A stretch of DNA of 40,192 nt from a virus, in UHGV virus genome UHGV-0071970; one strand, given 5' to 3'. The translations under genes were made by a program, and so were the position numbers. The notes under the pieces are model-generated. The model worked only from the letters and a program-made list of their open reading frames with translations. It was not told the origin of the DNA and did not search any database. Every line of letters begins with the position of its first letter. Within the stretch, counting starts at the first letter, position 1. Of the stretch, positions 6,495-28,464 are shown in pieces.

Positions 6495-6835
6495 TTTATA
6501 TCGCCGGTCCCATGACCGGATGCAAAGACCACAACAGGACGGCATTTTGCGTGGAGGACCTGAAACTTCGGTGCGCCGGAAACATCGTTCTTAATCCTGC
6601 CGTACTGCCTGACGGATTAAGCCAGCAGCAGTACATGAGTATTTGTATTCCGATGCTCATGTGTGCCGATGCCATTTACTTACTGGATGGATGGGAAGAG
6701 TCCGCTGGCGCACGGGCTGAGTACGCAATGGCGCTCAAACTGAACATGCCAGTGTCATTCCCGGAAAACCGGGCAGCCGGCGAAACCGTCGCGCAGCTGC
6801 TTCACAAATCAAAAGCCGCACAGGCGACTGAGTAA
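6485..6835 (+). CDS. DUF4406-like protein (nucleoside 2-deoxyribosyltransferase-like fold)
   Basis: N-terminus MAVIYIAGPMTG is the characteristic start of this family. Confidence 0.55.
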   Translation: MAVIYIAGPMTGCKDHNRTAFCVEDLKLRCAGNIVLNPAVLPDGLSQQQYMSICIPMLMCADAIYLLDGWEESAGARAEYAMALKLNMPVSFPENRAAGETVAQLLHKSKAAQATE

Positions 6836-7273
6836 CCGACCGGAGATCGAAACATGATTGCGCGCAGAGCTACCAACCGTCTCACAGGCTTTATTCCAGG
6901 CAAGGTTGATCATGCACTCCATCACGGGGCTGTCACTTTCCTCAACAAAGGAGAGGCGCGCAATCATGCATTCCGGGGTGAGCACGTGGCGCTGGCTAAT
7001 CAGTCTTTGATAGCTAAGCGCCTGCCATTCAGCCTTTTCAGCTCTGATAGAAAGAGAGGCAGCCATGACCTGCCACACCAGAAAGAGCACCACACTGGCG
7101 AAAACAAACGTTGCGCTGTCGCAAAAAATGAATGCGGCAACAATCGCAAGGAAAGCGCTAATCCTCAGAACCAAGGAAGCGCGACGGTGGAGAAGGCTTG
7201 TCATGTGTTCAAGCCAGTAGCTGTACCACAGGTCAAAAAGAATTTCGTAATCAGAAGGGAGCTTATCACTCAT
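6809..7273 (-). CDS. Predicted membrane protein (154 aa)
   Basis: ATG at 7273 with SD GGGGTG; two long hydrophobic segments (LRISAFLAIVAAFIF, FASVVLFLVWQVMAASL). Its 3' end overlaps the DUF4406 gene by 27 bp, convergently. Confidence 0.45.
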   Translation of the reverse strand: MSDKLPSDYEILFDLWYSYWLEHMTSLLHRRASLVLRISAFLAIVAAFIFCDSATFVFASVVLFLVWQVMAASLSIRAEKAEWQALSYQRLISQRHVLTPECMIARLSFVEESDSPVMECMINLAWNKACETVGSSARNHVSISGRLLSRLCGF

Positions 7274-7450
7274 CAGAAACACCCCGCGTATGCAGACAAT
7301 CACCAGTTGCCAGGTGATATTAATTCGCAACATTCTAACCACATCAGCACGCAACACAAAAACCGCTTGCCAGCGCTCGTCGTGTCGGGTTACATTTCCG
7401 CTGCACCTCATAAAACGGGTGCCGGGATTTCCACCCCGCTGACAAACGAA

Positions 7451-7477
7451 GCGCACAGCCGCGCCAGCGGTTTTTTT
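7451..7477 (+). terminator. Terminator-like hairpin followed by T7 (copy 1 of 2; second copy at 8280-8306)
   Basis: GCGCACAGCCGCGCCAGCGG followed by TTTTTTT; short GC stem, so weak. Confidence 0.35.
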
Positions 7478-7517
7478 GTGCGTACTGTATCGCCACGTCT
7501 TTTTCGCGTCAGAATTA

Positions 7518-7595
7518 TGGCGGGGCGTACAGGGCCGACTTCGGTCGGGCCGGTTTCTTCGTTTGCCGGTTGTGGAAACCCTGTACGTCTCGCCA
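7518..7595 (+). other. Long imperfect hairpin with internal UUCG-capped stem-loop, RNA-like (copy 1)
   Basis: TGGCGGGGCGTACAGGG pairs with CCCTGTACGTCTCGCCA (17 bp, including two G-T pairs that would only pair as G-U in plus-strand RNA); inner GGCCGAC-TTCG-GTCGGGCC stem-loop. Confidence 0.4.
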
Positions 7596-7656
7596 CCCTG
7601 AGTTTTCCACCTCTGGTTGGTGAGTTTTCAAAATTCACAAACGAAGAGGCCACACC

Positions 7657-7878
7657 ATGGCAAACCGCAAGCAACAGCGCGCCCGCGCTGAGCGTCTTCA
7701 CATCCGCAGCGAAATCAACCGCAGACTTTTCCGCGCAACACGCGTCGCACAAATCATGCATATCAACATGCTGCATGAGCGCACGCACGCGCTGTCAAAC
7801 CGTTACTGCGCTGCTGTCTTCAGCTATCTCGCCGAAGATCTGGCAGAACTGCAAAGCCTCATCAACCAGCACCGATAA
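7657..7878 (+). CDS. Small basic protein (73 aa), copy 1
   Basis: MANRKQQRARAERLHIRSEINRRLF...; SD AAGAGG 7 nt upstream. A longer antisense ORF (7408..7788) also exists, so coding strand is not certain. Confidence 0.45.
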   Translation: MANRKQQRARAERLHIRSEINRRLFRATRVAQIMHINMLHERTHALSNRYCAAVFSYLAEDLAELQSLINQHR

Positions 7879-7946
7879 ACCACATCCGGAAGCTATCCCA
7901 CACCTGCACGCGGGAGGCTTCCGCACGTCTGTTACCGGAGGTTCTC

Positions 7947-8117
7947 ATGAAGAGCGTTAAGGGACTTTCAGATATTCAGGACTTCTTTAACTGGATGTGG
8001 GCGGTGGATCCCCTGCTGGCTTCCCGCCTGAACAACTGGCACGACTATTACCGCCGCGCCTGTAAACAGGCTGCCCGCAGCGTCACCACATACGGGGCTT
8101 TCTCCTTCACCGTTGAC
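7947..8117 (+). pseudogene. Duplicated 5' fragment (about 57 codons) of the 138-aa gene at 8776..9192
   Basis: Same N-terminus MKSVKGLSDIQDFFNWMW...; the frame then runs out of the unit into repeat copy 2, giving the artefactual 280-aa track ORF 7947..8789. Confidence 0.5.
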
Positions 8118-8346
8118 TATGCAGACAATCACCAGTTGCCAGGTGATATTAATTCGCAACATTCTAACCACATCAGCACGCAACACAAAAACCGCTTGCC
8201 AGCGCTCGTCGTGTCGGGTTACATTTCCGCTGCACCTCATAAAACGGGTGCCGGGATTTCCACCCCGCTGACAAACGAAGCGCACAGCCGCGCCAGCGGT
8301 TTTTTTGTGCGTACTGTATCGCCACGTCTTTTTCGCGTCAGAATTA

Positions 8347-8424
8347 TGGCGGGGCGTACAGGGCCGACTTCGGTCGGGCCGGTTTCTTCGTTTGCCGGTT
8401 GTGGAAACCCTGTACGTCTCGCCA
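8347..8424 (+). other. Second copy of the RNA-like hairpin element
   Basis: Identical sequence at +829 bp. Confidence 0.4.
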
Positions 8425-8485
8425 CCCTGAGTTTTCCACCTCTGGTTGGTGAGTTTTCAAAATTCACAAACGAAGAGGCCACACC

Positions 8486-8707
8486 ATGGCAAACCGCAAG
8501 CAACAGCGCGCCCGCGCTGAGCGTCTTCACATCCGCAGCGAAATCAACCGCAGACTTTTCCGCGCAACACGCGTCGCACAAATCATGCATATCAACATGC
8601 TGCATGAGCGCACGCACGCGCTGTCAAACCGTTACTGCGCTGCTGTCTTCAGCTATCTCGCCGAAGATCTGGCAGAACTGCAAAGCCTCATCAACCAGCA
8701 CCGATAA
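8486..8707 (+). CDS. Small basic protein (73 aa), copy 2, identical
   Basis: Identical duplicate inside repeat copy 2. Confidence 0.45.
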   Translation: MANRKQQRARAERLHIRSEINRRLFRATRVAQIMHINMLHERTHALSNRYCAAVFSYLAEDLAELQSLINQHR

Positions 8708-8775
8708 ACCACATCCGGAAGCTATCCCACACCTGCACGCGGGAGGCTTCCGCACGTCTGTTACCGGAGGTTCTC

Positions 8776-9192
8776 ATGAAGAGCGTTAAGGGACTTTCAG
8801 ATATTCAGGACTTCTTTAACTGGATGTGGGCGGTGGATCCCCTGCTGGCTTCCCGCCTGAACAACTGGCACGACTATTACCGCCGCGCCTGTAAACAGGC
8901 TGCCCGCAGCGTCACCACATACGGGGATTTCTCCTTCACCGTGGACGGTCGTTACCGCGTGGACGTGAAAGGTGATGGTGATGGACTGGGTTTATTTCAC
9001 ATCAACGGCACCGACAGTACCGCCATCAGCTGGTCGTCATCAGAGATGGCGCTGATTCTGGAAATGACAACCCACAGCGTGGCCGTGAAAGGTATATACA
9101 CCGCAGAAGGTTTTATCGGCGAATACCAGCGCCTTCTCGTGCTGTACCGCGCGGCGTTTCAGGTGGCAACTGCCGGGGAGTGCGACGCATGA
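8776..9192 (+). CDS. Hypothetical protein (138 aa) immediately upstream of gpA
   Basis: Its stop overlaps the gpA ATG (ATGA at 9189-9192). Confidence 0.5.
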   Translation: MKSVKGLSDIQDFFNWMWAVDPLLASRLNNWHDYYRRACKQAARSVTTYGDFSFTVDGRYRVDVKGDGDGLGLFHINGTDSTAISWSSSEMALILEMTTHSVAVKGIYTAEGFIGEYQRLLVLYRAAFQVATAGECDA

Positions 9193-11702
9193 GCGACCAT
9201 AACGCACAACTGGCGTACCCGTGGAACGCCCCGCTACCGGTTATCGATCCTGAAACGTTCGGCAGAGCACAGCCAACCGCATTACGCCAGGCCATTCAGA
9301 GCTACATCAACGAGGACATTCGCATTGATGCCAGACTGGATGAAGAAACCGTCGCCTTTCTGACAACCACAGACGAAGGGAAGCGAATTAATTCGCACCT
9401 TCACCACAACGAAGAGCGTCGGATCAGACTGGAAAAACTGGCGAAGCACAAACGCGAGAATCCGCCCACGGTGGTATCGGAAGCCATGGCAGAACTTCGC
9501 GCCCTGCCCTCGTTTCTTGGCAACGTGCTCATTCGTGATCTGGCGCGTTTAAACCGCAAACAACAAAGCGCCCGCAATGAAGGCGTGAAAAACAACAACA
9601 CTCACGTGGCCGATAACTTCGTTCGCCGTGGACTGCGCACACGCCTGAAACGCATCGAACAGGTGAATGAATGCTTCGCCACGACGGCATTCAAAGCCAC
9701 CGCAGCGCGTCATCGCCTTGATGAATTACTCATGCTGCCACAACTCAACCGTGATCAAATTCAGCGCCTTGCCACACTAACGGCGGCGGCATTTTCCACC
9801 GAACTGGAACGCATATGTGATGAAGTTACTGAGCGGACAGGAAAAGGTGACGATAACCTGTTCACCTGGTTGCTGACTTACCAGCAGCTGGCGCGCATGG
9901 CGTTAAAACTGGGCGTGACCCCACCATACTGGCCGTCACTCGAGATCAGACGTGACCGCCGCACGGCACCAGACCCTGAACTGGTACCGGGTGCGGTAAT
10001 GCGTATCACCTGCGCCACCTGGTGGAACAACCAGCTGCGCCACCTCGCTGATCTCTGGCGGGAGGAATTACTGCGTGCCGCCGGAAGAGTATCGCGCAAG
10101 GCATCCCCCTACATCAGCCATGAGTCACTCCAGGAATTCCGGGAGAAACGCCAGCGCACCCGTGATTTTCTCAAAAGCTGGGACATTGAAAACGAAGACG
10201 GTGAACGCCTGAGTCTGGAGGACGTGTACTGGTCAGGGCTGGGGAATCCGCGCAACCGCCGCAACGAGATGATGGCCTGCGTCAGAGGGATGGAACAGGT
10301 CGCCGAATCGCGTGGTGACTCCGCGTTCTTCGTGACAGTGACCTGCCCTTCCCGCTTTCACAGCGTAAACGAGGACGGCAGCCTGAACCCGAAATACAAC
10401 GGTGCCACCGTGCGCGATGCCAGTGATTATCTGGTTTACGACGTCTTTGCAGCTGCAAGAAAAAAACTCAACAAAGAAGGCCTGAGCTGGTACGGGGTGC
10501 GCACCGTTGAGCCACACCATGACGGCACACCGCACTGGCACATGCTGGTATTCACCGCCCCGGACAATGAAGAACGCATCATTGAAATCATGCGTGACGC
10601 AGCAATCAAATCAGATCGCGCAGAACTGGGGAATGATATTTCTCCGCGCTTCAAGTGCGAAAAAATCGACCCGGCAAAAGGCACACCGGCAAGCTACATC
10701 GCAACCTATATTGGCAAGAACCTGGACGCCAGCACCTTTCACGACAATGACCCGAAAACCGGCAAACCTTACGCCGATAAAGAATCGGGAAAAACCATGG
10801 CGGAAACCGTGGAAAACGCCATTGCCTGGGCGAGTCTCCACCGCATCCGGCAGTTCCAGTTCTTCGGTATCCCGCCCCGCCAGGTATGGCGTGAACTCCG
10901 CCGCCTTGCCGGACAAATGGAGCGTAACCCCGCATCACCGAAGCGCCTGGACCATGACGACATTGACGCCATTCTGGCCGCCGCTGACGTGGGGTGTTTT
11001 GCCACCTACATCAACCGTCAGGGCGGCGTGCTCATTCCACGCAACCTGTACCTGATCCGCACCGCATACGAAACCGCAGATGAGGCCAACGACTACGGCG
11101 AATTCCCGCAGCGCATCTACGGAATTTGTGCCCCGTCGCTCGGCGAGCGCTACACCATCTGCACCCATCCGGACGAGTGGAAACTGGTCAGAAAAGAAGC
11201 GAAAGCCGACAACAGCACGGACGAGGATTTTGACGTTGGGGGCGGCTTCGCCGCACCTTGGACTCGTGGCAATAACTGTCCCCATGATGAAAAAACAGAC
11301 ACCGGAGAGGGTAAAACCCCACCACCGGAAACCAGGAAAGAACAAAAACTGGTCGTCCCGGGAGGTGATTTGGGTGAGTGGTTAAGGTCACTGACCCCCA
11401 CAGAGCGAAAACAACTCACCAGGCAGCTGAAAGATGCGCCATCTGACACAAAAACCGTGAAAACCGGCGGCCCCACCACGCCCGATGACGTCATACATGT
11501 GCGTACAGCATTGCCGCTGACTGACGTCACCACCACCGTAATCAAGTCGGCACTGAGCGCGACGGGCGAGGAGCTACACAGTGGCGCAGCACTTTCCGTA
11601 CACAGAGGTGCACGCGTTCGCCTGCCTGACGGGCGGATTGTGCACTGGGATGAGAAATCACGAAGCCTGGTGGCAGCAGATCAACCGGAGGTGAACCCAT
11701 GA
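9189..11702 (+). CDS. A: Replication initiation protein gpA (rolling-circle endonuclease)
   Basis: About 838 aa; tyrosine motif SYIATYIGKNLD typical of rolling-circle initiators; position and size match P2 gene A. ATG at 9189; the track start at 9180 is a GTG. Confidence 0.8.
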   Translation: MSDHNAQLAYPWNAPLPVIDPETFGRAQPTALRQAIQSYINEDIRIDARLDEETVAFLTTTDEGKRINSHLHHNEERRIRLEKLAKHKRENPPTVVSEAMAELRALPSFLGNVLIRDLARLNRKQQSARNEGVKNNNTHVADNFVRRGLRTRLKRIEQVNECFATTAFKATAARHRLDELLMLPQLNRDQIQRLATLTAAAFSTELERICDEVTERTGKGDDNLFTWLLTYQQLARMALKLGVTPPYWPSLEIRRDRRTAPDPELVPGAVMRITCATWWNNQLRHLADLWREELLRAAGRVSRKASPYISHESLQEFREKRQRTRDFLKSWDIENEDGERLSLEDVYWSGLGNPRNRRNEMMACVRGMEQVAESRGDSAFFVTVTCPSRFHSVNEDGSLNPKYNGATVRDASDYLVYDVFAAARKKLNKEGLSWYGVRTVEPHHDGTPHWHMLVFTAPDNEERIIEIMRDAAIKSDRAELGNDISPRFKCEKIDPAKGTPASYIATYIGKNLDASTFHDNDPKTGKPYADKESGKTMAETVENAIAWASLHRIRQFQFFGIPPRQVWRELRRLAGQMERNPASPKRLDHDDIDAILAAADVGCFATYINRQGGVLIPRNLYLIRTAYETADEANDYGEFPQRIYGICAPSLGERYTICTHPDEWKLVRKEAKADNSTDEDFDVGGGFAAPWTRGNNCPHDEKTDTGEGKTPPPETRKEQKLVVPGGDLGEWLRSLTPTERKQLTRQLKDAPSDTKTVKTGGPTTPDDVIHVRTALPLTDVTTTVIKSALSATGEELHSGAALSVHRGARVRLPDGRIVHWDEKSRSLVAADQPEVNP

Positions 11703-13056: not shown

Positions 13057-13602
13057 TCAGTCAAACCGAAATCGGCCGCTTGTCGCGTATGCATAGGTGA
13101 CCACCGCACCCAGCGCATTCACACGCTTCTTCACATAAATCACATTACCATCCTGATAGTCACCGTATGGGTAGCAAATAAAGATTGTTTTTTGCAAATC
13201 AGGATCATCAACAAATGCCCCTGAACAACTTTTTGAGCTACCGCGACTGTACTCATAGGGAGCGGAATAGAATGAATCTTCACCCGGAAGAAAATATATC
13301 AGCGTAACCAGGAGGGTAAACAGAATCATCCAGGTAAGAAGGCACATACCCGAAAAAAACTTAAGATACGATGTAACCCCGGTAAATTTAGACCGATCAA
13401 CCAGGTTCTTTTTCAACAGGCACAGTGAGACAAAAACCGAAAGCACCACAGACACTGAAACAAGGCAGTTTGTCGTGAACGAATAAAGGTAGGTAATTCT
13501 GTAAACATCGTTTCGCCACCAAATAAAAAGAAAAATCCCCCCCAAAACAGAAAGCGTGACAAAAGTTAAATAAGGATATGAGTAATTTTTCACAGTTCTC
13601 AC
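13057..13602 (-). CDS. Multi-pass membrane protein (about 182 aa) of the accessory cassette
   Basis: Probable GTG start at 13602 with SD GGGAGA; the track ORF extends to 13764 over the promoter motif. Three hydrophobic helices plus a C-terminal soluble domain; AT-rich. Confidence 0.5.
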   Translation of the reverse strand: MRTVKNYSYPYLTFVTLSVLGGIFLFIWWRNDVYRITYLYSFTTNCLVSVSVVLSVFVSLCLLKKNLVDRSKFTGVTSYLKFFSGMCLLTWMILFTLLVTLIYFLPGEDSFYSAPYEYSRGSSKSCSGAFVDDPDLQKTIFICYPYGDYQDGNVIYVKKRVNALGAVVTYAYATSGRFRFD

Positions 13603-13673
13603 CCGGCAGTCTCCCACTGATTCAGACAGATGAATATCATCACCACTTGCCACAAAAAATCGCAAGATCAAAA

Positions 13674-13712
13674 CTGCACAAAAGCGCACGAAATTGCACA
13701 ATTTTTCTAATG
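13674..13712. promoter_or_regulatory. Conserved 39-bp promoter-proximal element, copy A (upstream of membrane gene)
   Basis: CTGCACAAAAGCGCACGAAATTGCACAATTTTTCTAATG; 30/39 identical to the element at 16602-16640; contains three GTGCA/GTGCG repeats at about 10-11 bp spacing. Confidence 0.5.
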
Positions 13713-13932
13713 TACTTTTTCCCCATTCCGCCCGGTAACGGCGCTGGCTGAGGCCGGTTTGCACGGTGCACGAAAAACGAGGCGAGTAGTGGATGGGTAA
13801 AAATTAATAATAAGTATAAGCAATGTCGATAAACCAAGACACAACAAGTATTCAACACAATTAATCATGCACGTGCAAATAGCAATAACATTAACACATT
13901 ATTTATATAAAAAACAATCTGATATTATTTCG

Positions 13933-13963
13933 GTTGTGGGCTTGGTATTTTCAAACCCACAAC
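13933..13963 (-). terminator. Possible terminator hairpin downstream of the three-gene operon
   Basis: GTTGTGGG-N15-CCCACAAC; a U-rich run follows only after a gap on the minus strand, so weak. Confidence 0.3.
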
Positions 13964-13997
13964 AATAATATTATTTCGAGATATTAAACATAGACAA

Positions 13998-14789
13998 TCA
14001 CCCTATTTTTCTATGCATTTTCATGAGTTCCCTTATTAAGCTAGCATGAAAGATTGATACATCAGAAATCCTTGTATCAATAGATGAATCAATATTATCA
14101 GAAACCTTTTGCTCAAATAAATCGCAGATACCATCAAGTGACTCAATATCTTTTTCCAACTTAGAAAAACCCTTAAATAGATATAATGAATCCCTTAACT
14201 CCCCAAGCTTTGAAAATAGTTGGCTATCTAGTAATGATATAAATTCATCAGAGGGAAGCCCCATCGCATCCTTAAAATCTTCCGTAACTTCAAAAGCTAA
14301 TCCATTAATTTTAGGGAGAATAACTTCTCGTAACCAATACCCTTCGTTTATAGCTTCATTTCTTCCTTTATAATGCTGCCACAAAGGAACCCCTACAGAT
14401 GCAATTAGCGCAATAATTGAAATTGCTATAGAGTACCATTCAGGTCCTGATTCAGGAACTCTAACGATATTATAGAGATTCCCCGATGAGGTTGAGGGGT
14501 AATATCCATTCAGAACATAATTATCAGGTTTATCATAAAGAAGGTGCGGTGTAAACTTCCTTTCATAACTATTGCATAATTTTAGATCGCTATTTTTTCC
14601 AATGCATATATCAGCATTAAAAATGTTTCCACTCTTTGGTTCTATTACGTGAGACTCTGAATTTTGCGAATCCATGTTAGACGCGGTTCTTTCTAGATAT
14701 GTCGCAGAGCAAGCGGATATATTAACAAAAAAAATGACAGGCAATGCTGTCATTTTAAAAACAGAGCACAAATCAGAAGAACGGAACAT
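13998..14789 (-). CDS. Predicted lipoprotein/membrane protein (263 aa), cassette gene 3
   Basis: N-terminus MFRSSDLCSVFKMTALPVIFFVNISAC looks like a signal peptide with lipobox ISAC; internal TM WYSIAISIIALIASVGVPLW; acidic C-terminal domain. Start overlaps the upstream gene by 17 bp. Confidence 0.5.
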   Translation of the reverse strand: MFRSSDLCSVFKMTALPVIFFVNISACSATYLERTASNMDSQNSESHVIEPKSGNIFNADICIGKNSDLKLCNSYERKFTPHLLYDKPDNYVLNGYYPSTSSGNLYNIVRVPESGPEWYSIAISIIALIASVGVPLWQHYKGRNEAINEGYWLREVILPKINGLAFEVTEDFKDAMGLPSDEFISLLDSQLFSKLGELRDSLYLFKGFSKLEKDIESLDGICDLFEQKVSDNIDSSIDTRISDVSIFHASLIRELMKMHRKIG

Positions 14790-15117
14790 TTCGATGTAAT
14801 CCTCTTCTCACAGCCCTATCCAGCTCAGAAAGCATTCCTTCTTTATAATTCACTCCATCTAAAGATGTTCTGCTATAAAATTCATTCGGAGATGAAAAAA
14901 GAGGCAATATATTCTCTAGCATACCCAAAAAGTATGAGCTTGACACAACCACACCATTCGGAATTGATAGAAAAATCCTATCATTGTTATCAAAAGTAAA
15001 GCGATCTATGCCAAAGAAACTATATGCCTTGCGACCATTATCACGCCCAGCAAATAATTTCTTGCCGCCATCTTTAACTAATTTATTGAAATCTATATAA
15101 ATATTTGCCATTTTCAT
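14773..15117 (-). CDS. STAS-like (DUF4325-type) small protein, cassette gene 2
   Basis: Core RIFLSIPNGVVVSSSYFLGML fits the STAS-like DUF4325 pattern as I recall it; SD GAGGAA; coupled to the upstream ATPase gene. Confidence 0.45.
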   Translation of the reverse strand: MKMANIYIDFNKLVKDGGKKLFAGRDNGRKAYSFFGIDRFTFDNNDRIFLSIPNGVVVSSSYFLGMLENILPLFSSPNEFYSRTSLDGVNYKEGMLSELDRAVRRGLHRNVPFF

Positions 15118-15128
15118 TTACCTATTCC

Positions 15129-16505
15129 TCAGGTTCTTTGAGTTGCATTTTCCGGTAAAGGAAAACGTATATTAATCATAACTCCCGGAAAACGGGCTTT
15201 CTGCATACACTTAAGATAGGTACGATCTGGTTCAGATTCAAGCCCTGTATTATTAAATGGATAAGTGAATTTGTCACTTTGGTTATCTAACGTTTGCTTT
15301 TTCAACTTATAAGAACCATCAAAGTTTATATGTGTGCATCCAGAAATTAAAGACATTCTGATGTTTCCACTTAGTTCTTTGGATAGTTCTTTTAAACTAT
15401 CATGCATATCCTGGAAAAACTTCAATAGCTCAATGGTTCCCGTACCAGAACTATCTGTCTCCGTTTCATTTTTACAACTAACCCGCCCCTGCAAAGCAGC
15501 GACTGTAATCAAACCTTCTCTAAACATCCCTTTTTTATTTATGTGTTTTTCCACATAAGGGATTATGTGATTGTTATATGAATAATGTTCTAAAGAAAGT
15601 CCTGAAAAAGTTTCATCAATAGTTTTTCCAAAGTTAAAAACAGCTATTTCACATGTTGGCTGTTTTAAGCCATTATTTACAAACCCCCTCAAATACCAAC
15701 GCGGACGCTGCTCAAGCCCACAATGTCTCTCTGCATTATCAAGTAATTCGCCCATGCAAGATGTTAGATGGTTTTCTGCCTTGCTAACTAATTTTAATTG
15801 ATGATCACTTAGACACTCGTTTATATAATTAGTGAATTTCTCAGACATTCTATTTTTGGTATCTTGTGCAAATGCAGACGCATTTTCCTTGCCGATACTA
15901 TCAGCAGAGAATATTCTTTTCTTAGGGTTATCTTTTTTCGATTTTTCTGTTTCATCATGCACCTTCCCTGGCGTCACTTTATTTATTTCTTTAACCAACC
16001 CGATGTCACGAATAATTTCTAAATATTTTTCATCCTTCGGATAAATGCCATTAAGTTGTACTTGAGCATCTTTTAAATTTATATTGTGACGTTTGGCTGA
16101 GCTCAGTGCAACACCAAGGAGACATTCCGCACCTAAACAATGCTTTTTATTTTTAGTATAATCAAGCAAATATGATTTACGTTTACCCCTGGCAATCAAT
16201 CTAGTTACACCATGAATAAACAAAAGAGATTTTTCTGGATGATCAAACAAATCGAAACATTTAGGTATTATTACTCTATCTTCTTTGCGACGAAGAGTTG
16301 CAGTATCATATTTCTTTACGGATGAAATACTTTCAATAAAAGTAGCCACCTGACTTTTCACTGGTGTTACTTCGTCAGAAAAATGTAACCTTTCATAGGC
16401 TTTATATTTAATTCTTCTTTTATTTTTTCTCTCAACGCCTTTTAAAAAGCGAATCCAACCACGTAAAAAGCGTTTTCTTGCATCCTTTTTATCTATTTTT
16501 TTCAC
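15129..16505 (-). CDS. GHKL-superfamily ATPase, anti-sigma-factor-kinase-like, with about 240-aa basic N-terminal extension; cassette gene 1
   Basis: N-box-like GELLDNAERH and G-rich lid DSSGTGTIELL in the C-terminal half; GTG start at 16505 with SD AAGG; strongly AT-rich. Confidence 0.5.
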   Translation of the reverse strand: MKKIDKKDARKRFLRGWIRFLKGVERKNKRRIKYKAYERLHFSDEVTPVKSQVATFIESISSVKKYDTATLRRKEDRVIIPKCFDLFDHPEKSLLFIHGVTRLIARGKRKSYLLDYTKNKKHCLGAECLLGVALSSAKRHNINLKDAQVQLNGIYPKDEKYLEIIRDIGLVKEINKVTPGKVHDETEKSKKDNPKKRIFSADSIGKENASAFAQDTKNRMSEKFTNYINECLSDHQLKLVSKAENHLTSCMGELLDNAERHCGLEQRPRWYLRGFVNNGLKQPTCEIAVFNFGKTIDETFSGLSLEHYSYNNHIIPYVEKHINKKGMFREGLITVAALQGRVSCKNETETDSSGTGTIELLKFFQDMHDSLKELSKELSGNIRMSLISGCTHINFDGSYKLKKQTLDNQSDKFTYPFNNTGLESEPDRTYLKCMQKARFPGVMINIRFPLPENATQRT

Positions 16506-19925: not shown

Positions 19926-19943
19926 TGTCGCCACGCTCTTACA
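19926..19943. promoter_or_regulatory. TGT-N12-ACA dyad in the P/O divergent intergenic region (candidate Ogr-type late activator site)
   Basis: TGTCGCCACGCTCTTACA; the P2 late-promoter dyad motif is recalled from memory. Confidence 0.4.
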
Positions 19944-20867: not shown

Positions 20868-21962
20868 ATGGGAAACCGCTTAACGCTTTCTCGCGAAGGT
20901 CGCAGCAATCTTGAGGCCTATCTTGCACGCCAGGCTGAACTGGCCGAAACCACCGTAGAACGACTGGGGAAAACCTTCAGCGTTGATCCGGCTGTTCATC
21001 AGAAGATGGAAAACGCCATCAAAGAGAGCGACGAGCTGCTGAAAAGAATCAACAGCATCGGCGTTGACGATCAGGAGGGTGAAAAAGTCCTGGTGAATAC
21101 CAGCGGCCCCATCGCCAGCACCAACTCAACCAGTGACGGCGTGAAGCGACGCAATCCCGCTGACGTCTCTGATCTGGCATCACGTCGTTATCGCTGCGAA
21201 CAGGTGAACTACGACACCTTCATCAGCTACGCACAGATTGACGCGTGGAGCAGCCAGAAAAACTTCCAGCAACTGCTGAGTGCACAAATCACCCGACAGA
21301 TTGCACTGGACCGTATCATGATTGGCTTTAACGGTGAGTCGCACGCCATCATCTCCGATCGTTCTGCCAACCCGAAACTTCAGGACGTTAACACCGGGTG
21401 GCTGAAACACATCCGTGAACACGCCACGACGCGTGTCGTGAAGGCAATGACGCTGACCCGTCGCGATCATGAAAACAAACTGGTTGCAAAAGGCGACTAC
21501 GGCAACGCTGACGCGATGGTTAACGACATTCGTTCTTCCGTACTGGATGAGTGGCACAAGGACGCCCCGGATCTGGTTGTTGTCATGGGCCGCAACCTGT
21601 TCAACACGCTGCGTCTGCCTATGATTAACGCCATCAGCACCACCAACCCGAACACGGAGCTGGTCGCCGGACAGCTGATTACAGCCTCCCGCACCATTGG
21701 CGCGCTGCCGACCTTCTTTGCGCCGTACTTCCCGGACGATGCCATGCTGATCACGTCGTTCAGCAACCTTTCGGTGTACTTCCAGAAAGGGTCACTGCGT
21801 CGCTTCATCCGTGAAGAGCCGGAGTACAACCGTATCGCCACCTACCAGTCCATGAACGACTGCTACGTGGTGGAAGACTACGGCAAATGTGCGCTGATTG
21901 AGGGCATTTCTTTCGCCGGTGAAGATCCGGAAGACAAGGAAGAGGCAGAAGCGCAGGCGTAA
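20868..21962 (+). CDS. N: Major capsid protein (gpN)
   Basis: 364 aa, directly after the scaffold gene; P2 N-like. Confidence 0.8.
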   Translation: MGNRLTLSREGRSNLEAYLARQAELAETTVERLGKTFSVDPAVHQKMENAIKESDELLKRINSIGVDDQEGEKVLVNTSGPIASTNSTSDGVKRRNPADVSDLASRRYRCEQVNYDTFISYAQIDAWSSQKNFQQLLSAQITRQIALDRIMIGFNGESHAIISDRSANPKLQDVNTGWLKHIREHATTRVVKAMTLTRRDHENKLVAKGDYGNADAMVNDIRSSVLDEWHKDAPDLVVVMGRNLFNTLRLPMINAISTTNPNTELVAGQLITASRTIGALPTFFAPYFPDDAMLITSFSNLSVYFQKGSLRRFIREEPEYNRIATYQSMNDCYVVEDYGKCALIEGISFAGEDPEDKEEAEAQA

Positions 21963-23626: not shown

Positions 23627-23917
23627 ATGTTTCAGAGAATTTACGACCACATTACGTTTTTCACATCCGTCATGGTCACCGGTATAGGGGTTATGACGCT
23701 GAGCGAGAAGATGGCGCTGGCAGGACTGATTCTGGGGGCGCTTTCACTGCTGCGCGGATGGATGCACAGAACACGTATGGAGCAGGCACAGGAGCGGCGC
23801 AATGAGCTTATTGCACGCATTGCCGACCAGATGCAGCACCGACCACTAAAAGGCAGCGAGAAGCGCGCTCTGGAAGCCCTGAATGCAGACGGGGAATCAC
23901 ATGCCAGGACAGATTAA
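23627..23917 (+). CDS. Holin (gpY-like)
   Basis: Two hydrophobic helices and a charged C-terminus, immediately before the endolysin. Confidence 0.65.
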   Translation: MFQRIYDHITFFTSVMVTGIGVMTLSEKMALAGLILGALSLLRGWMHRTRMEQAQERRNELIARIADQMQHRPLKGSEKRALEALNADGESHARTD

Positions 23918-24440
23918 ACGCTATGCCGTTGCCGCCATCGTGGCGCTGGGTTTTTCGCTGGCCCCCGGGGAGCTGAGAACCTCACAGGAGGCACAGGAAA
24001 AAATTGCCACCTGGGAAGAGTGTCGGGCATTCCCGTACAGGGATATCGCTGGCGTGAAAACCGTGGGTTGTGGCTCAACGGGAAACGTCCCCGACCGCCA
24101 CCATACCAAACAGGAAGTTGCCGGTCGATGGGTGAACGATTTACGACGGGCGGAGAACTGCATCAATCAGAATTTCAATGGCCGCGACATGCCACAACGC
24201 CACTTTGAGGCAATGACGGATGCTGCCTTTAATCTGGGGTGCAAAGGCCTGATGTGGTTTAAGGGGCGTGACGGGAGGATGCACAGAACAACCATCTGGA
24301 AGTTCGCTCAGGGAAAGAACTGGAGCGCAATGTGCGGCAGGCTGACGGATTTTGTGAACAGCGGCGGACGCTATTCACAGGGGCTGTTTAACCGGCGCAA
24401 TGACTTCAGGAACTGGTGTATGAACGGAGTGAAGCAATGA
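23901..24440 (+). CDS. Endolysin (T4-type lysozyme family), possibly with an N-terminal signal-arrest-release segment
   Basis: Catalytic E-x8-D-x5-T-like spacing in TWEECRAFPYRDIAGVKT; hydrophobic N-terminus YAVAAIVALGFSLAPG. ATG at 23901 with SD GGGGAA. Confidence 0.75.
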   Translation: MPGQIKRYAVAAIVALGFSLAPGELRTSQEAQEKIATWEECRAFPYRDIAGVKTVGCGSTGNVPDRHHTKQEVAGRWVNDLRRAENCINQNFNGRDMPQRHFEAMTDAAFNLGCKGLMWFKGRDGRMHRTTIWKFAQGKNWSAMCGRLTDFVNSGGRYSQGLFNRRNDFRNWCMNGVKQ

Positions 24441-24871
24441 AAACACCTGCCGTGTTGCTCTGGTTTCTTGCCACCCTGTTGCTTTGTGGCCTGACAGGCT
24501 GGGAAGCATACCGCAAAGGGAAGGAAAGTCTCGGACGGGAACAGATGATGGACATCATAGAGGACAACCGCGCCGCCATGCAGGAAGTTCGCCATGCATA
24601 CACAGACTTTTCCAGGGTGATAAACGTGATCCGCATTCTGGACCAGCAACGGATTGCAGAAGGAGAGCAACGACGTGAAGAAATGCAAAAAGACGCGCAG
24701 GGTGACACGTGTGCCAGCGCTTATCCTCCCGCTGCTGTTACTGAGCGGTTGCAGCAACACGCAGCACACATTGAAAACCAGACTCGTTTACGAGCCGGTG
24801 CCGACAGTTCTGACAAGGCAGACCCCGGTTCCGGCACTGGAAATACCCGTGACATGGTACAGGGTGACTGA
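24437..24871 (+). CDS. Rz-like inner-membrane spanin (LysB)
   Basis: N-terminal TM then a charged coiled region; position after the endolysin. Confidence 0.6.
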   Translation: MKTPAVLLWFLATLLLCGLTGWEAYRKGKESLGREQMMDIIEDNRAAMQEVRHAYTDFSRVINVIRILDQQRIAEGEQRREEMQKDAQGDTCASAYPPAAVTERLQQHAAHIENQTRLRAGADSSDKADPGSGTGNTRDMVQGD

Positions 24872-24986
24872 ATGGAGCGATCGGCTACTGGAAGCACTCG
24901 ACACATGCAACGCAGACAAGGCTGCGATCGCCTGGCTGGATAAACAAAGAGCAGAGCGGGCGCAAGATGCGCCCCATCAGGAGTAA
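24675..24986 (+). CDS. Rz1-like outer-membrane lipoprotein spanin (LysC), overlapping LysB in another frame
   Basis: Lipobox LLLLSGC followed by a proline-rich segment; GTG start at 24675 with SD AGGAGA. Confidence 0.5.
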   Translation: MKKCKKTRRVTRVPALILPLLLLSGCSNTQHTLKTRLVYEPVPTVLTRQTPVPALEIPVTWYRVTEWSDRLLEALDTCNADKAAIAWLDKQRAERAQDAPHQE

Positions 24987-24989
24987 ACG

Positions 24990-26960
24990 ATGAGCAAAAA
25001 ACACTTTGAACTGATTACTGCCACCAACCGCGCAGAATTCGCTGAAAAAGTTAACAAGCGATTACAGGAAGGCTGGGAACTTCTCGGTAATGCCGGTATT
25101 GCATCAGAGCCGGGAGTCCCCTGGTATCTCATGCAGGCTATGGTTTCAGGCAGTGATGACCAGGGAGGCACCATTATCACCCCGACATCCGACAGCGAAC
25201 CGGAGTGGTATTACGTTGTGGTGAGCGCTGGTCAGTCCAACTCTATGGCATACGGTGAGGGGTTACCTCTCCCGGACAGTTACGATAAACCCGATTCGCG
25301 CATTCGCCAGCTGGCACGCCGCAGCACCGTAACCCCGAGCGGAAAAGCCTGTGCCTATAACGACATCATTCTGGCGGATCACTGCCTGCATGACGTGCAG
25401 GATATGAGCCAGTACAACCACCCGAAAGCCGACCTGAACAAAGGTCAGTATGGCTGTGTGAGTCAGGGATTGCACATTGCGAAGCGCCTGCTGCCATTTA
25501 TCCCGGCAAATGCGGGGATCCTTCTGGTCCCATGCAGCCGTGGCGGTTCCGGCTTTACAACCGGTGATGCGGGGCAATTCAGCGAGATCGGCGGCGCAAC
25601 TGAAAAATCCTGCCGCTGGGGAACGAACACGCCGCTGTACAAGGATTTAATCAGCCGCACAAAAGCAGCGCTGGCGAAAAATCCGAAAAACGTCCTGCTG
25701 GCCGTCTGCTGGACACAGGGCGAGGCAGATCTTGAGAAAGAACAAAACGCCGCACAGCATAAAGATCTTTTCACAGCCATGGTGAAGCAGTTCCGGGCTG
25801 ACCTGGCCGATGTTGCGAAGCAGTGCAACCAGGGCAACCCTGAAAGCGTGCCGTGGATTTGTGGAGATACCACCTACCACTGGAAAAAAACCTACGAAGC
25901 ACAGTACGCAACCGTGTATGGCGGATACAAAAACAGCACTGAGAAGAATATTGTTTTTGTGCCTTTTGTTACGGATGAGTACGGGAAAAACACCCCAACA
26001 AACGAGCCGACAGAAGATCCGGATATTGCGGAAGCGGGTTATTACGGTGCCGCATCCCGCAGTAGCGGAAACTGGGTAAGCCATCTGCGTGGAACGCACT
26101 TCAGCTCATGGGCCCGCCGGGGCATTATTGCCGATCGCATGGCGTCAGCAATCCTGCTTAACGTCGGCCGCACGCTGCCATTTATTGCGGGTACAGAGCC
26201 GGAACGCGTGGCAAAACCATCACAGGATGCACCGGGCGGCATCAGTAAGCCATCTTCACCGGAAGCAGAACAACCGGCAGTCAGACCGGGGCCGGTCACG
26301 CTCATGAGTCTGCTGGCATCATCTCCTGAACTGGAAAGCCAGGGCTGGACGCTGAGCGAAGGCAAAAACGGGGCCAACACACCAAAACAACTGAAAGACA
26401 CGCTGATCGGTGATGAGGAAGCAACAGGGAAAAAAGCCCTGAAACTGACCAAACAGGAAGGCAATACCTGGTATCTGGAGCATAAGGCCGGTAATGGTGC
26501 TGACCTTCTGAAAAATGGCGGGACTGTAAGTTGCCGATTCAAAATCGAGGGTGAGCTGAAAAAAGACCAGTACGCAATGGCGATGTACTGGAAAACATCA
26601 GCATTACCGCAGGATGTGAAATTACTGGGGGCAGATCCAAATAATTTATTGCTCTCATTCTTTCTTCAGACAGACAGCGCAAACCTGAATCTGATGTATC
26701 ACAAAACGCCAAACGAACAACTGGGAACCTTTGGTCAGTTCAATAACAACTGGCACACCATAGCGTTTCGTTTTGCGGGAAACAACAGCACCCAGGTAAC
26801 ACCGGTTCTGGATGGCGTGGACGGAAAACCGTTCATGCTTTCCACATCAAAAGCCGATGTTACCAACGACACGTTACGCGTGACCGATATCACGTATCGG
26901 CCGACCTATACCGTACTGATTGACAGCCTGAGCGTTGTCGTAAATCAGCCACCGGCATAA
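24990..26960 (+). CDS. NanS-p-like carbohydrate O-acetylesterase: DUF1737-like N-domain + SGNH/SASA esterase + C-terminal beta-rich domain
   Basis: N-terminus ...FAEKVNKRLQEGWELLGNAGIASEPGVPWYLMQAMV fits the DUF1737 pattern; catalytic-serine block VVVSAGQSNSMAYGEG (GQSN). Architecture is as I recall for prophage NanS-p esterases. Confidence 0.65.
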   Translation: MSKKHFELITATNRAEFAEKVNKRLQEGWELLGNAGIASEPGVPWYLMQAMVSGSDDQGGTIITPTSDSEPEWYYVVVSAGQSNSMAYGEGLPLPDSYDKPDSRIRQLARRSTVTPSGKACAYNDIILADHCLHDVQDMSQYNHPKADLNKGQYGCVSQGLHIAKRLLPFIPANAGILLVPCSRGGSGFTTGDAGQFSEIGGATEKSCRWGTNTPLYKDLISRTKAALAKNPKNVLLAVCWTQGEADLEKEQNAAQHKDLFTAMVKQFRADLADVAKQCNQGNPESVPWICGDTTYHWKKTYEAQYATVYGGYKNSTEKNIVFVPFVTDEYGKNTPTNEPTEDPDIAEAGYYGAASRSSGNWVSHLRGTHFSSWARRGIIADRMASAILLNVGRTLPFIAGTEPERVAKPSQDAPGGISKPSSPEAEQPAVRPGPVTLMSLLASSPELESQGWTLSEGKNGANTPKQLKDTLIGDEEATGKKALKLTKQEGNTWYLEHKAGNGADLLKNGGTVSCRFKIEGELKKDQYAMAMYWKTSALPQDVKLLGADPNNLLLSFFLQTDSANLNLMYHKTPNEQLGTFGQFNNNWHTIAFRFAGNNSTQVTPVLDGVDGKPFMLSTSKADVTNDTLRVTDITYRPTYTVLIDSLSVVVNQPPA

Positions 26961-27024
26961 CAATGCTTCCCAGCCATCCGGCGGGGAAGCTCGCTGACAA
27001 CCGGGAAAATAAAAGGAGCAAGCC

Positions 27025-27189
27025 ATGGGATTTATTCATCAGATAATGTTGTATTTCAGTACCGCCGTATCCCTTCTGTATCTGATCTCAGGGGGATATA
27101 AAGCCGTCCGCAATTTCTGGAACAAAAAGATAGATGAAGCAGCCGCCAGGAAATCAGCTGGCGGAGCGGTCAACGGGGTATTGCCATAA
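27025..27189 (+). CDS. Small membrane protein (54 aa)
   Basis: Strong SD AAGGAG 6 nt before the ATG; one TM helix (IMLYFSTAVSLLYLISGGY) and a basic tail. Confidence 0.4.
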   Translation: MGFIHQIMLYFSTAVSLLYLISGGYKAVRNFWNKKIDEAAARKSAGGAVNGVLP

Positions 27190-27245
27190 CAACAGGCACA
27201 GCGCATCAGAACGGCACCACTGTCCACAGCAAAAGAAACAAAAAA

Positions 27246-27264
27246 CCCTCCGGTATACGGAGGG
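27246..27264 (-). terminator. Intrinsic-terminator-like hairpin whose U-run is on the minus strand
   Basis: CCCTCCG-GTATA-CGGAGGG preceded on the plus strand by AAACAAAAAA (U-rich after the stem on the minus strand). Confidence 0.4.
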
Positions 27265-27361
27265 TGCAAGAGGGGAAAGGTGAGCAAGAAAGAACCCGAA
27301 TTAAAAGCCATTTAATTTTGAGATTTTTAATTGCCACACGCAACACGTTCTACGGTGTTTT

Positions 27362-27832
27362 ATGCTGAAACTGAATTCATTACGCGAAGCTCTGACCAGC
27401 AACTGCCGGTGGTGTAAGGCCAGCCCGGAAAAATTCACGGTATTCATTGAATCGGGTGGCATTGAAACCACCGGTGAATCCCCCTCATTCCTGTACCGCT
27501 ACAACCTGGTGTTGTTCGTCATGGACTTCACAGAAAGTATCGACAACATCATGCTGCCGGTCATGGCGTGGCTGTACAGGAATCAGCCGGATCTTCTTCT
27601 CAATCCGGAGAAGAACAAAAGCATCAAATTTTCGACGGCCATCAACGATGACGACAGTGCCGATATCCTGCTGGAAATCCCGGTATGGGAGCGCGTGATT
27701 GTGCGCCGTAATGACGACGGCACGGTGACGGCAGAGCACATCGGTGAGCCCCCGATAAGCCGGGCACTGGAAGCATGGCGCGTAGTGTTTGAAGACATGA
27801 CGTGGCGAACCGGAACGGAGACCAGCACATGA
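27362..27832 (+). CDS. R: Tail completion protein R
   Basis: P2 R-like pattern (MLK...SLR.ALT...F.E.Y.L.....DFT....L.V.AWL..NQPD). Confidence 0.8.
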   Translation: MLKLNSLREALTSNCRWCKASPEKFTVFIESGGIETTGESPSFLYRYNLVLFVMDFTESIDNIMLPVMAWLYRNQPDLLLNPEKNKSIKFSTAINDDDSADILLEIPVWERVIVRRNDDGTVTAEHIGEPPISRALEAWRVVFEDMTWRTGTETST

Positions 27833-28464
27833 GAGCGGACCGCGAACTGGATGTCATCTTTCAGGATATTCTTTCCGGCCTGTCGGCAGCCGGAATTCAG
27901 CGCACGGCAATGAGCGTGGGTAAGGTCGTCCGACAGCTACAGACAAAACGCATCAGAAGCCAGGTATCCCCGGAAGGCCAGCCATGGGAGAAACGAAAAC
28001 GCCGCATCATGCGCATACAAAAAGGCGTGAAGTTTATCTGGAAGGACGGCCAGGTAAGAAACCTGAAAAACTGGAGCACGTCACAGGGATGTTTCGGGCA
28101 GAAAATCACCGGCTACGATACGGACGCCGGGGGGATCAGGACGTTTTACAAGGCAGACATCGGGGACTACCTGGAAATTAACACACAGCGCGTCGCAGCA
28201 AGAGCATCACGTCGCTCACCTATGTTCGAAAAGCTGAGAACAGCACGCTTTCTGAGAATCATCCCCGACACAAACGGCGTAAGTGTCGGCTTTCAGGGCC
28301 GGGCCGCGCGTATTGCCAGAGTGCACCAGTTCGGTGAGGTGGGCCTGGTATCACCCGGGAACGCCACGAAATACCCCGTGCGCGAGCTGCTGGGCCTGAA
28401 CGAAAAAGACAAACAGCAAATCACAGAAACCGTGATTGCCGGACTGGGGAAAGCAGCGAAATGA
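27829..28464 (+). CDS. S: Tail completion/virion morphogenesis protein S
   Basis: ATGA overlap with R; position between R and V. Confidence 0.7.
   Translation: MRADRELDVIFQDILSGLSAAGIQRTAMSVGKVVRQLQTKRIRSQVSPEGQPWEKRKRRIMRIQKGVKFIWKDGQVRNLKNWSTSQGCFGQKITGYDTDAGGIRTFYKADIGDYLEINTQRVAARASRRSPMFEKLRTARFLRIIPDTNGVSVGFQGRAARIARVHQFGEVGLVSPGNATKYPVRELLGLNEKDKQQITETVIAGLGKAAK

Follow-up and report, generated by a model that had tools for sequence, protein, structure and literature searches.

We describe a sialate O-acetylesterase gene of the NanS-p family that is part of a late operon, carried by a prophage of the P2 family. The gene lies in a viral DNA of 40,192 nucleotides, UHGV virus genome UHGV-0071970, which is called the window below. 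As judged by homology, its open reading frame (ORF) from 24990 to 26960 encodes an intact NanS-p-family enzyme with predicted esterase activity. Comparison with related alleles indicates that the enzyme bodies behind the N-terminal domain have recombined, inside the gene, with alleles of lambdoid and Shiga toxin (Stx) phages. The subtype of the N-terminal DUF1737 domain, on the other hand, appears to be matched to the capsid or head type of the carrier, a relation that is correlative. We are highly confident of the family assignment and the exchange between phages taken together. The overall explanation that we favor, and consider rather probable, is a late-operon NanS-p esterase with a head-matched DUF1737 capsid anchor; for the anchoring step by itself we see about even chances.

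The esterase gene and its domains

The protein matched DUF1737, SASA (PF03629, aa 148-274, E 3.4e-13) and DUF6645 (aa 507-620, E 1.5e-44), each above the Pfam gathering score. The profile phrog_143 matched across the full length (E 1e-296). In the PDB, E. coli NanS/YjhS (3PT5) aligned with aa 70-389 and the C-terminal domain of a NanS-p protein (6YP6) with aa 434-652. Matches of this kind indicate strong homology and not chance. A first-pass annotation, made from the letters and the ORFs of the window, had read the gene as a DUF1737-like N-terminus, an SASA block with a GQSN motif and a beta-rich C-terminus. The matches to PF08410, PF03629, 3PT5, PF20350 and 6YP6 confirmed this architecture, and the hidden Markov model search for SASA and DUF1737 that the annotation had proposed found both. 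The contrary outcome that it had named, i.e. neither SASA nor DUF1737 and instead homology to a tail fibre or virion structural protein, did not materialise. A weak match to a PHROG 'tail protein' (E 1.4e-5), over the SGNH part, was the only candidate for such a homology and was rejected.

S83, Q243-G244-E245 and H370 did not vary across 25 aligned homologues. The serine of the GQSN motif and H370 paired with the corresponding residues of 3PT5 in the alignment. Ser83 and His370 presumably form the catalytic dyad. An AlphaFold2 model of the protein had a mean predicted local distance difference test score (pLDDT) of 66. The N-domain (aa 4-54) was modelled confidently as beta-alpha-beta-beta with a pLDDT of ~80-89 and the C-terminal domain as beta-rich with a pLDDT of ~80, while the linkers, aa 55-72 and 397-435, were disordered. 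There was no hydrophobic stretch resembling a signal peptide within the first 60 residues. SSP motifs occurred only at aa 422 and 444, i.e. in the second linker. No NCBIfam model matched the protein; the NCBI name for its cluster at 90% identity (277 sequences) is 'sialate O-acetylesterase [Escherichia coli]'. The nearest relative of this cluster was only 60% identical.

The chromosomal NanS (YjhS, 3PT5) is homologous over the catalytic domain, but it has neither DUF1737 nor the lectin-like domain (loci L011 and L012 are examples, ~330 aa). It is a secreted enzyme of the nan regulon and not the product of a phage late gene. The closer counterparts are the NanS-p proteins of lambdoid and Stx phages (L0105/z1466 of 933W; vb_24B_21, also called gp84, of phi24B). 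They share the order DUF1737-SASA-DUF6645 and the SGNH motifs with the window protein, and their genes also lie in the late operon beside the lysis genes. There the order is Q-(stx)-nanS-p-DUF1378-DUF826-holin S, which places nanS-p before the lysis genes, between stx and S, whereas here it follows them, between lysC and R. A further difference is the carrier, a myovirus prophage of the Peduoviridae. Overall, the window allele was only ~51-58% identical to any lambdoid allele.

Insertion between lysC and gpR

By its gene content the carrier is a P2-family (Peduoviridae) prophage of E. coli. The P2-type late gene set was present in the P2-type order (Q, P; O, N, M, L, X, holin, lysozyme, LysB/LysC, R, S, V, W, J, I) together with ogr. 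In RefSeq the locus L001, which shares 99.7% identity, is annotated with the GPO scaffold, a P2-family capsid, gpM, tail X, baseplate V/W/J/I, late control D and ogr. The window was 99.5-99.7% identical to a prophage beside serS in 14 of 5,426 complete E. coli genomes, and its esterase allele occurred at an identity of at least 99% in 14 complete genomes. When the phage collection was searched with the locus by megablast there was no match, and no sequenced phage record carries the window allele; on the protein level all matches to the esterase in phage records were at most 56% identical.

Matches to PF23793 and PF06891 confirmed that the gene is located in the P2-type late region, right after LysB/LysC and before the tail gene R, as first annotated. 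The proposal that it is an insert was checked against relatives that lack the esterase. In P88 (Escherichia), phiT5282H (Enterobacter) and ST16-OXA48phi5.4 (Klebsiella) the spanin/LysC region leads straight to gpR with a gap of 0-140 nt. Because these related Peduoviridae join the two genes directly, we regard the gene set as an insertion with the boundaries 24987 and 27361. No target duplication was found at its ends. Over its 3' third the GC content drops from ~0.54-0.57 to ~0.47-0.51.

Occupation of this slot is not peculiar to the window. Six further alleles were located between LysB/LysC and gpR, namely L002 (from SCU-172), L003 (from S19-651), L094, L095, L096 and L097, and with the window allele at least seven diverged alleles share the lysC/R slot. 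Three proteins had been chosen beforehand solely by the N-terminal motif EPGVP[WF]YLMQ (P0002, P0004 and P0011, which correspond to L094, L095 and L096); all three fell in P2 late operons. L097 is from Escherichia phage vB_EcoM-705R2 (ON470623.1, 32421-33671), a Peduoviridae record. Its nanS-p, annotated only as 'hypothetical protein', is cut off at the record end, and the other end carries the host genes ycaO-focA-pflB. Probably the assembly of ON470623.1 broke at the multi-copy esterase gene.

Searches specific for the junction yielded four allele types in 14 + 2 + 12 + 2 complete genomes (~30 of the 5,426 E. coli genomes), in contrast to lysC-like sequence, which was present in more than 1,000 of them. 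A peptide-pattern scan of genome contigs, with narrow patterns, detected only five loci, and a 60-aa N-domain query against a large protein database returned two fragments only, within the limit set by the word index. The window, L002 and L094 have gpN sequences (20868-21962 in the window) that are 98-99% identical, yet their catalytic domains are 64-79% and their N-domains 71-87% identical; the complete esterases of the window and L002 share 52%. Because the esterases are far more diverged than gpN, the lysC/R slot is a site of allele replacement within near-identical backbones.

Exchange of enzyme bodies between phage families

The domains of the esterase were compared separately. The nearest neighbours of the N-domain of every P2-context allele were other P2-context alleles. 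Identities of N-domains were 47-100% within the P2 context and at most 47% between P2-context and lambdoid alleles. The N-domain of the window was 53-73% identical to those of other P2-context alleles and 27-47% to those of lambdoid alleles, from which it also differs by a 4-residue insertion in a loop (EPGVPWY).

The enzyme bodies behaved differently. The catalytic domains of L096, L095, L002 and L097 were closest to lambdoid or Stx-phage alleles, with identities of 95%, 91%, 85% and 83%, respectively. For L096 the counterpart was the Stx-phage locus L072, with 95% identity in the catalytic and 94% in the C-terminal domain. The C-terminal domain varied widely between alleles (30-98% identity), and those of L095 and L096 were 94-95% identical to that of the Stx-phage locus L072. 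On the DNA level L096 and L072 were less than 50% identical over nt 1-190, 90-100% identical from nt ~216 to ~1926 and again less than 50% identical past the stop codon. In neighbour-joining trees the split of P2-context alleles from the rest had a bootstrap value of 100% for the N-domain and of 0% for both the catalytic and the C-terminal domain. An exchange between phage families is real because the catalytic and C-terminal parts of some P2-borne alleles are 91-95% identical to those of Stx-phage alleles, with sharp breakpoints in the DNA. The first-pass annotation had suggested that the gene moves between unrelated phage types; the tract that L096 shares with the Stx-phage allele, which begins at nt ~216 and extends as far as the stop codon, bears this out.

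All three domains are under purifying selection with ratios of nonsynonymous to synonymous substitution (dN/dS) of 0.07-0.28. For the N-domain dN/dS was 0.13-0.28 where dS was not saturated, and the proportion of nonsynonymous differences (pN) was well below that of synonymous ones (pS). A reading of the esterase gene as a pseudogene or relic was rejected on the basis of dN/dS and the invariant catalytic residues.

DUF1737 subtype and head type

The relation between N-domain and head was examined in 112 IMG/VR loci with 10-kb flanks. N-domain subtypes were assigned by sequence motifs; large downstream ORFs were clustered and the clusters checked with Pfam. If the flank ended short of the capsid gene, the head module was defined by terminase and portal. 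This resulted in 38 non-redundant combinations of protein and module (Table 1).

Table 1. N-domain subtypes of lambdoid NanS-p proteins and the head modules of their carriers (number of non-redundant combinations). Module I, lambda gpA terminase and lambda portal; module II, gpA terminase, lambda-family portal and ClpP-capsid fusion; module III, HK97-like TerL; module IV, P22-like portal, 933W/phi24B podovirus type. The remaining two combinations are a 'type B' protein with module I and an unclassified N-domain with module III.
N-domain subtype	I	II	III	IV
lamA	18	1	4	0
lamA2 (YTDDG)	0	8	0	0
phi24B type (STAGYGAEF)	0	0	1	4

The adjusted mutual information (AMI) with the head module was 0.57 for the N-domain, with values of ~0 for the catalytic domain and 0.09 for the C-terminal one in the lambdoid loci. 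HK97-like TerL heads and lambda-like heads had the lamA subtype in common. Simple physical linkage would predict the opposite ranking, because the catalytic and C-terminal domains are physically nearer to the head genes than the N-domain. Linkage was rejected as the cause of the association since the domains closer to the head genes do not show it. In the P2 group the identity of gpN was correlated with that of the N-domain with a Mantel r of 0.56 (p ~0.001), compared to r = 0.31 for the catalytic domain. Taken together, the DUF1737 subtype appears matched to the head type in a correlative manner.

Some NanS-p homologues of 683-692 aa carry an unrelated N-terminal module of ~110 aa, 'type B' (MSDSKWKMLSAMPGEF...), in place of DUF1737 (L045-L047, L052, L055-L062, L064-L067, L069 and L073; e.g. 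L059:5713-7767). This module had no Pfam or PHROGs match, and most of the 'type B' loci are without the usual lambdoid lysis markers. The 'type B' module may be a different virion anchor.

Expression signals

The ATG of the esterase gene begins 3 nt beyond the TAA of lysC (24984-24986). The gene has its own ribosome-binding site, as first annotated: GGAG with a spacer of 6 nt to the ATG. No sigma-70-like promoter was found between lysC and R; a scan over 5.2 kb detected a single sigma-70-like site, inside the gene, against 3.3 expected. P2 late promoters are marked by dyads of the type TGT-N12-ACA. One such dyad, in the divergent terminase/gpO intergenic region, is the only upstream copy that the late head/lysis operon has; within 24-28 kb the motif is absent. 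The insert would likely be transcribed from this dyad as an Ogr-dependent late promoter. Over the whole window the motif occurred 10 times with 9.5 expected, i.e. at chance level, and only the position of this copy is informative.

R and S follow downstream without an intervening promoter or + strand terminator, so that co-transcription of the insert with the late operon is most likely. With its start 3 nt after lysC, the esterase gene most likely rides on the late operon transcript. The designation as a moron fails under the strict definition, which demands a gene's own promoter and a terminator on the coding strand: neither a sigma-70-like nor an Ogr-type motif is present from lysC to R, and the hairpin behind the insert is not a + strand terminator. 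The label of 'cargo' is probably too simple as well, considering that the N-domain is P2-specific, is under purifying selection and has a subtype that tracks the type of head module.

DUF1378 partner and hairpin

The peptide of 54 aa downstream of the esterase, described at first as a membrane peptide, was confirmed as a DUF1378 protein with a single hydrophobic stretch, aa 3-21. DUF1378 is the usual downstream neighbour of nanS-p in lambdoid loci, too. In L002 it is a decayed and interrupted remnant (10545-10660), which tblastn matched over aa 1-35 with E 1e-5, and from L094 it is absent (6930-7076). Because of this decay and loss, DUF1378 is dispensable in P2-type carriers.

The hairpin predicted after the peptide is real. 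It has a stem of 8 bp, a loop of 5 nt and a folding energy of -16.4 kcal/mol (z = -3.4). Its form, however, is that of a minus-strand terminator, because, read along the + strand, it has an A-run before it but lacks a T-run behind it. A + strand terminator between insert and R was rejected for the lack of the T-run. Rfam had no match within 24.8-27.5 kb. All P2-context and lambdoid alleles that were examined had the combination of A-run and GC hairpin without a T-run 3' of nanS-p (window 27238-27265; L002:10441-10480; L094:6930-6975; L007:4936-4980; L008:4981-5030). In L095 and L096 it is located just past the stop codon, in the window after DUF1378. A minus-strand-type terminator is thus found inside an operon that is all plus-strand. 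Since the lambdoid loci have the DUF1378 partner and the same A-run with GC hairpin, the transferable unit consists of nanS-p, hairpin and DUF1378.

Further features of the window

Table 2. Positions of the esterase gene, its parts and neighbouring elements in the window.
Feature	Position	Strand	Basis and remarks
nanS-p-type sialate O-acetylesterase gene	24990..26960	+	656 aa, ATG start; ORF list; matches in Pfam, PHROG and PDB
DUF1737 N-terminal domain, aa 3-52	24996..25145	+	PF08410, E 1.6e-8; P2-specific subtype, loop SEPGVPWYLMQ
SGNH/SASA catalytic domain, aa 70-389	25197..26156	+	3PT5, E 2.3e-114
Ser83 in GQSN	25236-25238	+	motif position, aa 81-84
His370	26097-26099	+	motif position
C-terminal lectin-like jelly-roll domain (DUF6645), aa 434-652	26289..26945	+	6YP6, E 1.2e-63; PF20350, E 1.5e-44
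GGAG ribosome-binding site of the esterase gene	24980..24983	+	read from sequence; inside last lysC codons
Whole accessory insert, 2,375 nt	24987..27361	+	lysC stop to gpR start; insert-less relatives
DUF1378 small membrane protein, 54 aa	27025..27189	+	PF07125, E 6e-21; phrog_494
GC-rich hairpin preceded by A-run	27245..27265		terminator-like for minus strand only; scan and fold
Lysozyme	23883-24440		upstream of insert; Pfam/PHROG
LysB-like spanin	24416-24871		upstream of insert; Pfam/PHROG
lysC (Rz1-like spanin)	24654..24986	+	left boundary of insert; PF23793, E 2e-12; phrog_456
gpR tail completion gene	27362..27832	+	right boundary of insert; PF06891, E 9e-41; phrog_65
gpS	27802-28464		downstream of gpR; Pfam/PHROG
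TGT-N12-ACA dyad	19926..19943	+	likely Ogr-dependent late promoter; divergent terminase/gpO intergenic region

Outside the late operon, four ORFs (235, 263, 114 and 458 aa) are located on the - strand at 13057-16505, where they separate the replication genes from the portal gene. They had no Pfam or PADLOC match at E <= 1e-3. This position is the classical P2 accessory-gene hotspot, and the four ORFs could be undescribed anti-phage or other cargo. The early region contains at 6809-8789 an ORF of 215 aa on the minus strand and ORFs of 368 and 280 aa on the plus strand, which had no Pfam or PADLOC match either. The length of the early region seems to differ between the window and the otherwise 99.7% identical L001. 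A Hok/Gef family toxin gene lies just past ogr at the prophage end beside serS (L001:36228-36368, which matches the right end of the window prophage).

Discussion

The explanation that we favor can be outlined as follows. The esterase would be made only during late, Ogr-activated transcription and would leave the cell at phage lysis, as suggested by the absence of a promoter and a signal peptide of its own. The SGNH domain with Ser83 and His370 is predicted to strip O-acetyl groups from sialic acids, e.g. Neu5,9Ac2 on mucin glycans, and the C-terminal jelly-roll domain would act as a carbohydrate-binding module; both roles are derived from homology. DUF1737 would be a capsid anchor matched to the head type, and its P2-specific subtype may fasten the enzyme, if perhaps only for a time, to capsids of the P2 type (gpN). 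In that case the esterase would be displayed on virions as a mucus-acting enzyme besides being released by lysis. For the tethering of the enzyme by the P2-specific DUF1737, which we deduce from the comparisons above and by analogy, the chances appear roughly balanced.

The analogy is with phi24B, where gp84, a NanS-p, is reported to be a capsid-decorating protein and DUF1737 its capsid-binding domain, composed of three strands and a single helix, in which Tyr42 forms a 'tooth' (bioRxiv 10.64898/2026.04.10.717836). The DUF1737 hexamer of gp84 binds only to the flat hexon on the 3-fold axis, central in each facet of the T=9 shell (same preprint). We found no other paper that links DUF1737 to capsids. 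The N-domain of the window appears to resemble that of gp84 in the predicted helix and three antiparallel strands, arranged as beta-alpha-beta-beta, and in an aromatic residue at the loop, Y46 here and Tyr42 there; W45 and Y46 adjoin the hairpin loop. Disordered linkers and SSP motifs in the second linker are further likenesses. The loops differ in sequence and in length (STAGYGAEF in phi24B, SEPGVPWY here), and the window protein is without the SISSP motif after the domain. The partition of DUF1737 subtypes between head types would independently support the phi24B observation and generalise it.

Several points weigh against a head-matched anchor in P2-type phages. P2 heads have T=7 shells. 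Such a shell does not have a 3-fold flat hexon of the type present in the T=9 shell of phi24B. The target here would be a P2 gpN shell and not the T=9 shell of a podovirus. The rule has exceptions, as a lamA allele occurs once with module II and an allele of the phi24B type once with module III. The AMI values are not corrected for kinship among sequences that are phylogenetically non-independent, and module IV is represented by n = 4. In the P2 group the coupling is loose, as gpN sequences of 98-99% identity go with N-domains of 71-87% identity. For the split between P2-context and lambdoid N-domains, taken alone, a passive cause is possible, i.e. a diverged 5' end that is unable to recombine. 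Nor does the enzyme correspond to gp84 in all details. The first linker has no SSP motif of the kind proposed for autoprocessing. The conserved aromatic carbohydrate-binding residues Y510, Y515, Y540 and F611 of vb_24B_21 (PMC10462455) map to Y528, Y533, F558 and V624; thus two are identical, one is a conservative change and one of the four proposed sugar-binding aromatics is lost.

Such a passive partition is part of an alternative that we consider unlikely, but which survives best among its competitors. Here, as in the classical model of NanS-p, the enzyme would be a public good, freed by the lysis burst, that enables surviving sibling lysogens to use O-acetylated sialic acids, and the N-domain would play no part in the virion. 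It is consistent with the position of the gene in a late operon, adjacent to lysis genes, with the lack of a signal peptide and with recombination tracts that stop where DNA homology stops. Furthermore, NanS-p enzymes are active esterases that are induced with the late genes, support growth of lysogens on Neu5,9Ac2 and de-O-acetylate mucin (PMC8065619, PMC10462455). Yet release by lysis leaves unexplained why the N-domain is under purifying selection in the P2 context and why in lambdoid phages it covaries with the head module when the domains nearer to the head genes do not. It also conflicts with the virion proteomics and cryo-electron microscopy of phi24B (bioRxiv 10.64898/2026.04.10.717836).

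A second alternative, quite improbable in our judgement, is that the enzyme, free or bound to virions, deacetylates O-antigen or an O-acetylated polysialic acid capsule and so exposes a receptor for adsorption. This possibility was raised in a review on Stx phages (PMC8065619), and the variability of the C-terminal binding domain would suit a module that confers specificity. On the other hand, the catalytic domain is very close to the sialate-specific NanS, and phages that differ in tail and receptor exchange these enzyme bodies among each other, which speaks against a specificity for the host receptor. Finally, we hardly consider the gene a functionless hitch-hiker left to decay after illegitimate recombination with a lambdoid prophage: the fate of DUF1378 in L002 and L094 and the GC content of the insert's 3' third, unlike that of the flanks, would fit, but the ORF of 656 aa is intact, its catalytic residues are invariant, dN/dS is low in all three domains, and seven alleles, intact or truncated by assembly, a cluster of 277 members and 14 genomes with nearly identical copies are on record.

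Returning to the head-matched anchor, a broader version of it can be formulated. DUF1737 may be a modular capsid display tag specific for the head type, with at least five anchor classes beneath which the enzyme body is swapped freely. The classes would correspond to lambda-like gpA/portal, ClpP-capsid-fusion, HK97-like TerL, 933W/phi24B podovirus and P2 gpN heads. We put this generalisation forward tentatively, at somewhat less than even chances.

The NanS-p family, its biochemistry and its distribution in lambdoid phages have been published, and the sequence of the window allele already bears its name at NCBI. New are the carrier from the P2 family and the combination of a DUF1737 partition specific for head modules with free exchange of the enzyme bodies. 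To our knowledge the lysC/R junction is not among the described hotspots of P2. We found no paper that places it there and none that places NanS-p in P2-like phages. It resembles the accessory hotspots of P2 (old, tin and Z/fun) in that a non-essential module is present or absent among close relatives at a fixed junction between conserved genes, but it differs in being located inside the late operon without expression signals of its own. A case of accessory genes in P2-like prophages is the cdt-V operon (PMC8065619).

Up to now NanS-p was regarded as an accessory that Stx and lambdoid prophages carry and that aids enterohaemorrhagic E. coli in feeding on the O-acetylated sialic acids of mucin. 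The same enzyme is present in P2-family prophages of ordinary E. coli from human gut and wastewater, in ~0.5% of complete genomes, and two temperate phage families that are not related to each other exchange its body by recombination within the gene, while the N-domain stays with the head type. If the display tag holds true, P2-like virions of the human gut would show a sialic-acid esterase on their capsid hexons, a mucus-interacting decoration in a phage family that is not known for head decoration of its own. If matching to the head means binding to the capsid, as cryo-electron microscopy suggests for phi24B, DUF1737 would represent a portable module for capsid display that occurs in nature. 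It would then bear on models of phage-mucus interaction and on the engineering of enzyme-decorated phages, and it would make a specific and easily testable prediction for P2-type capsids.

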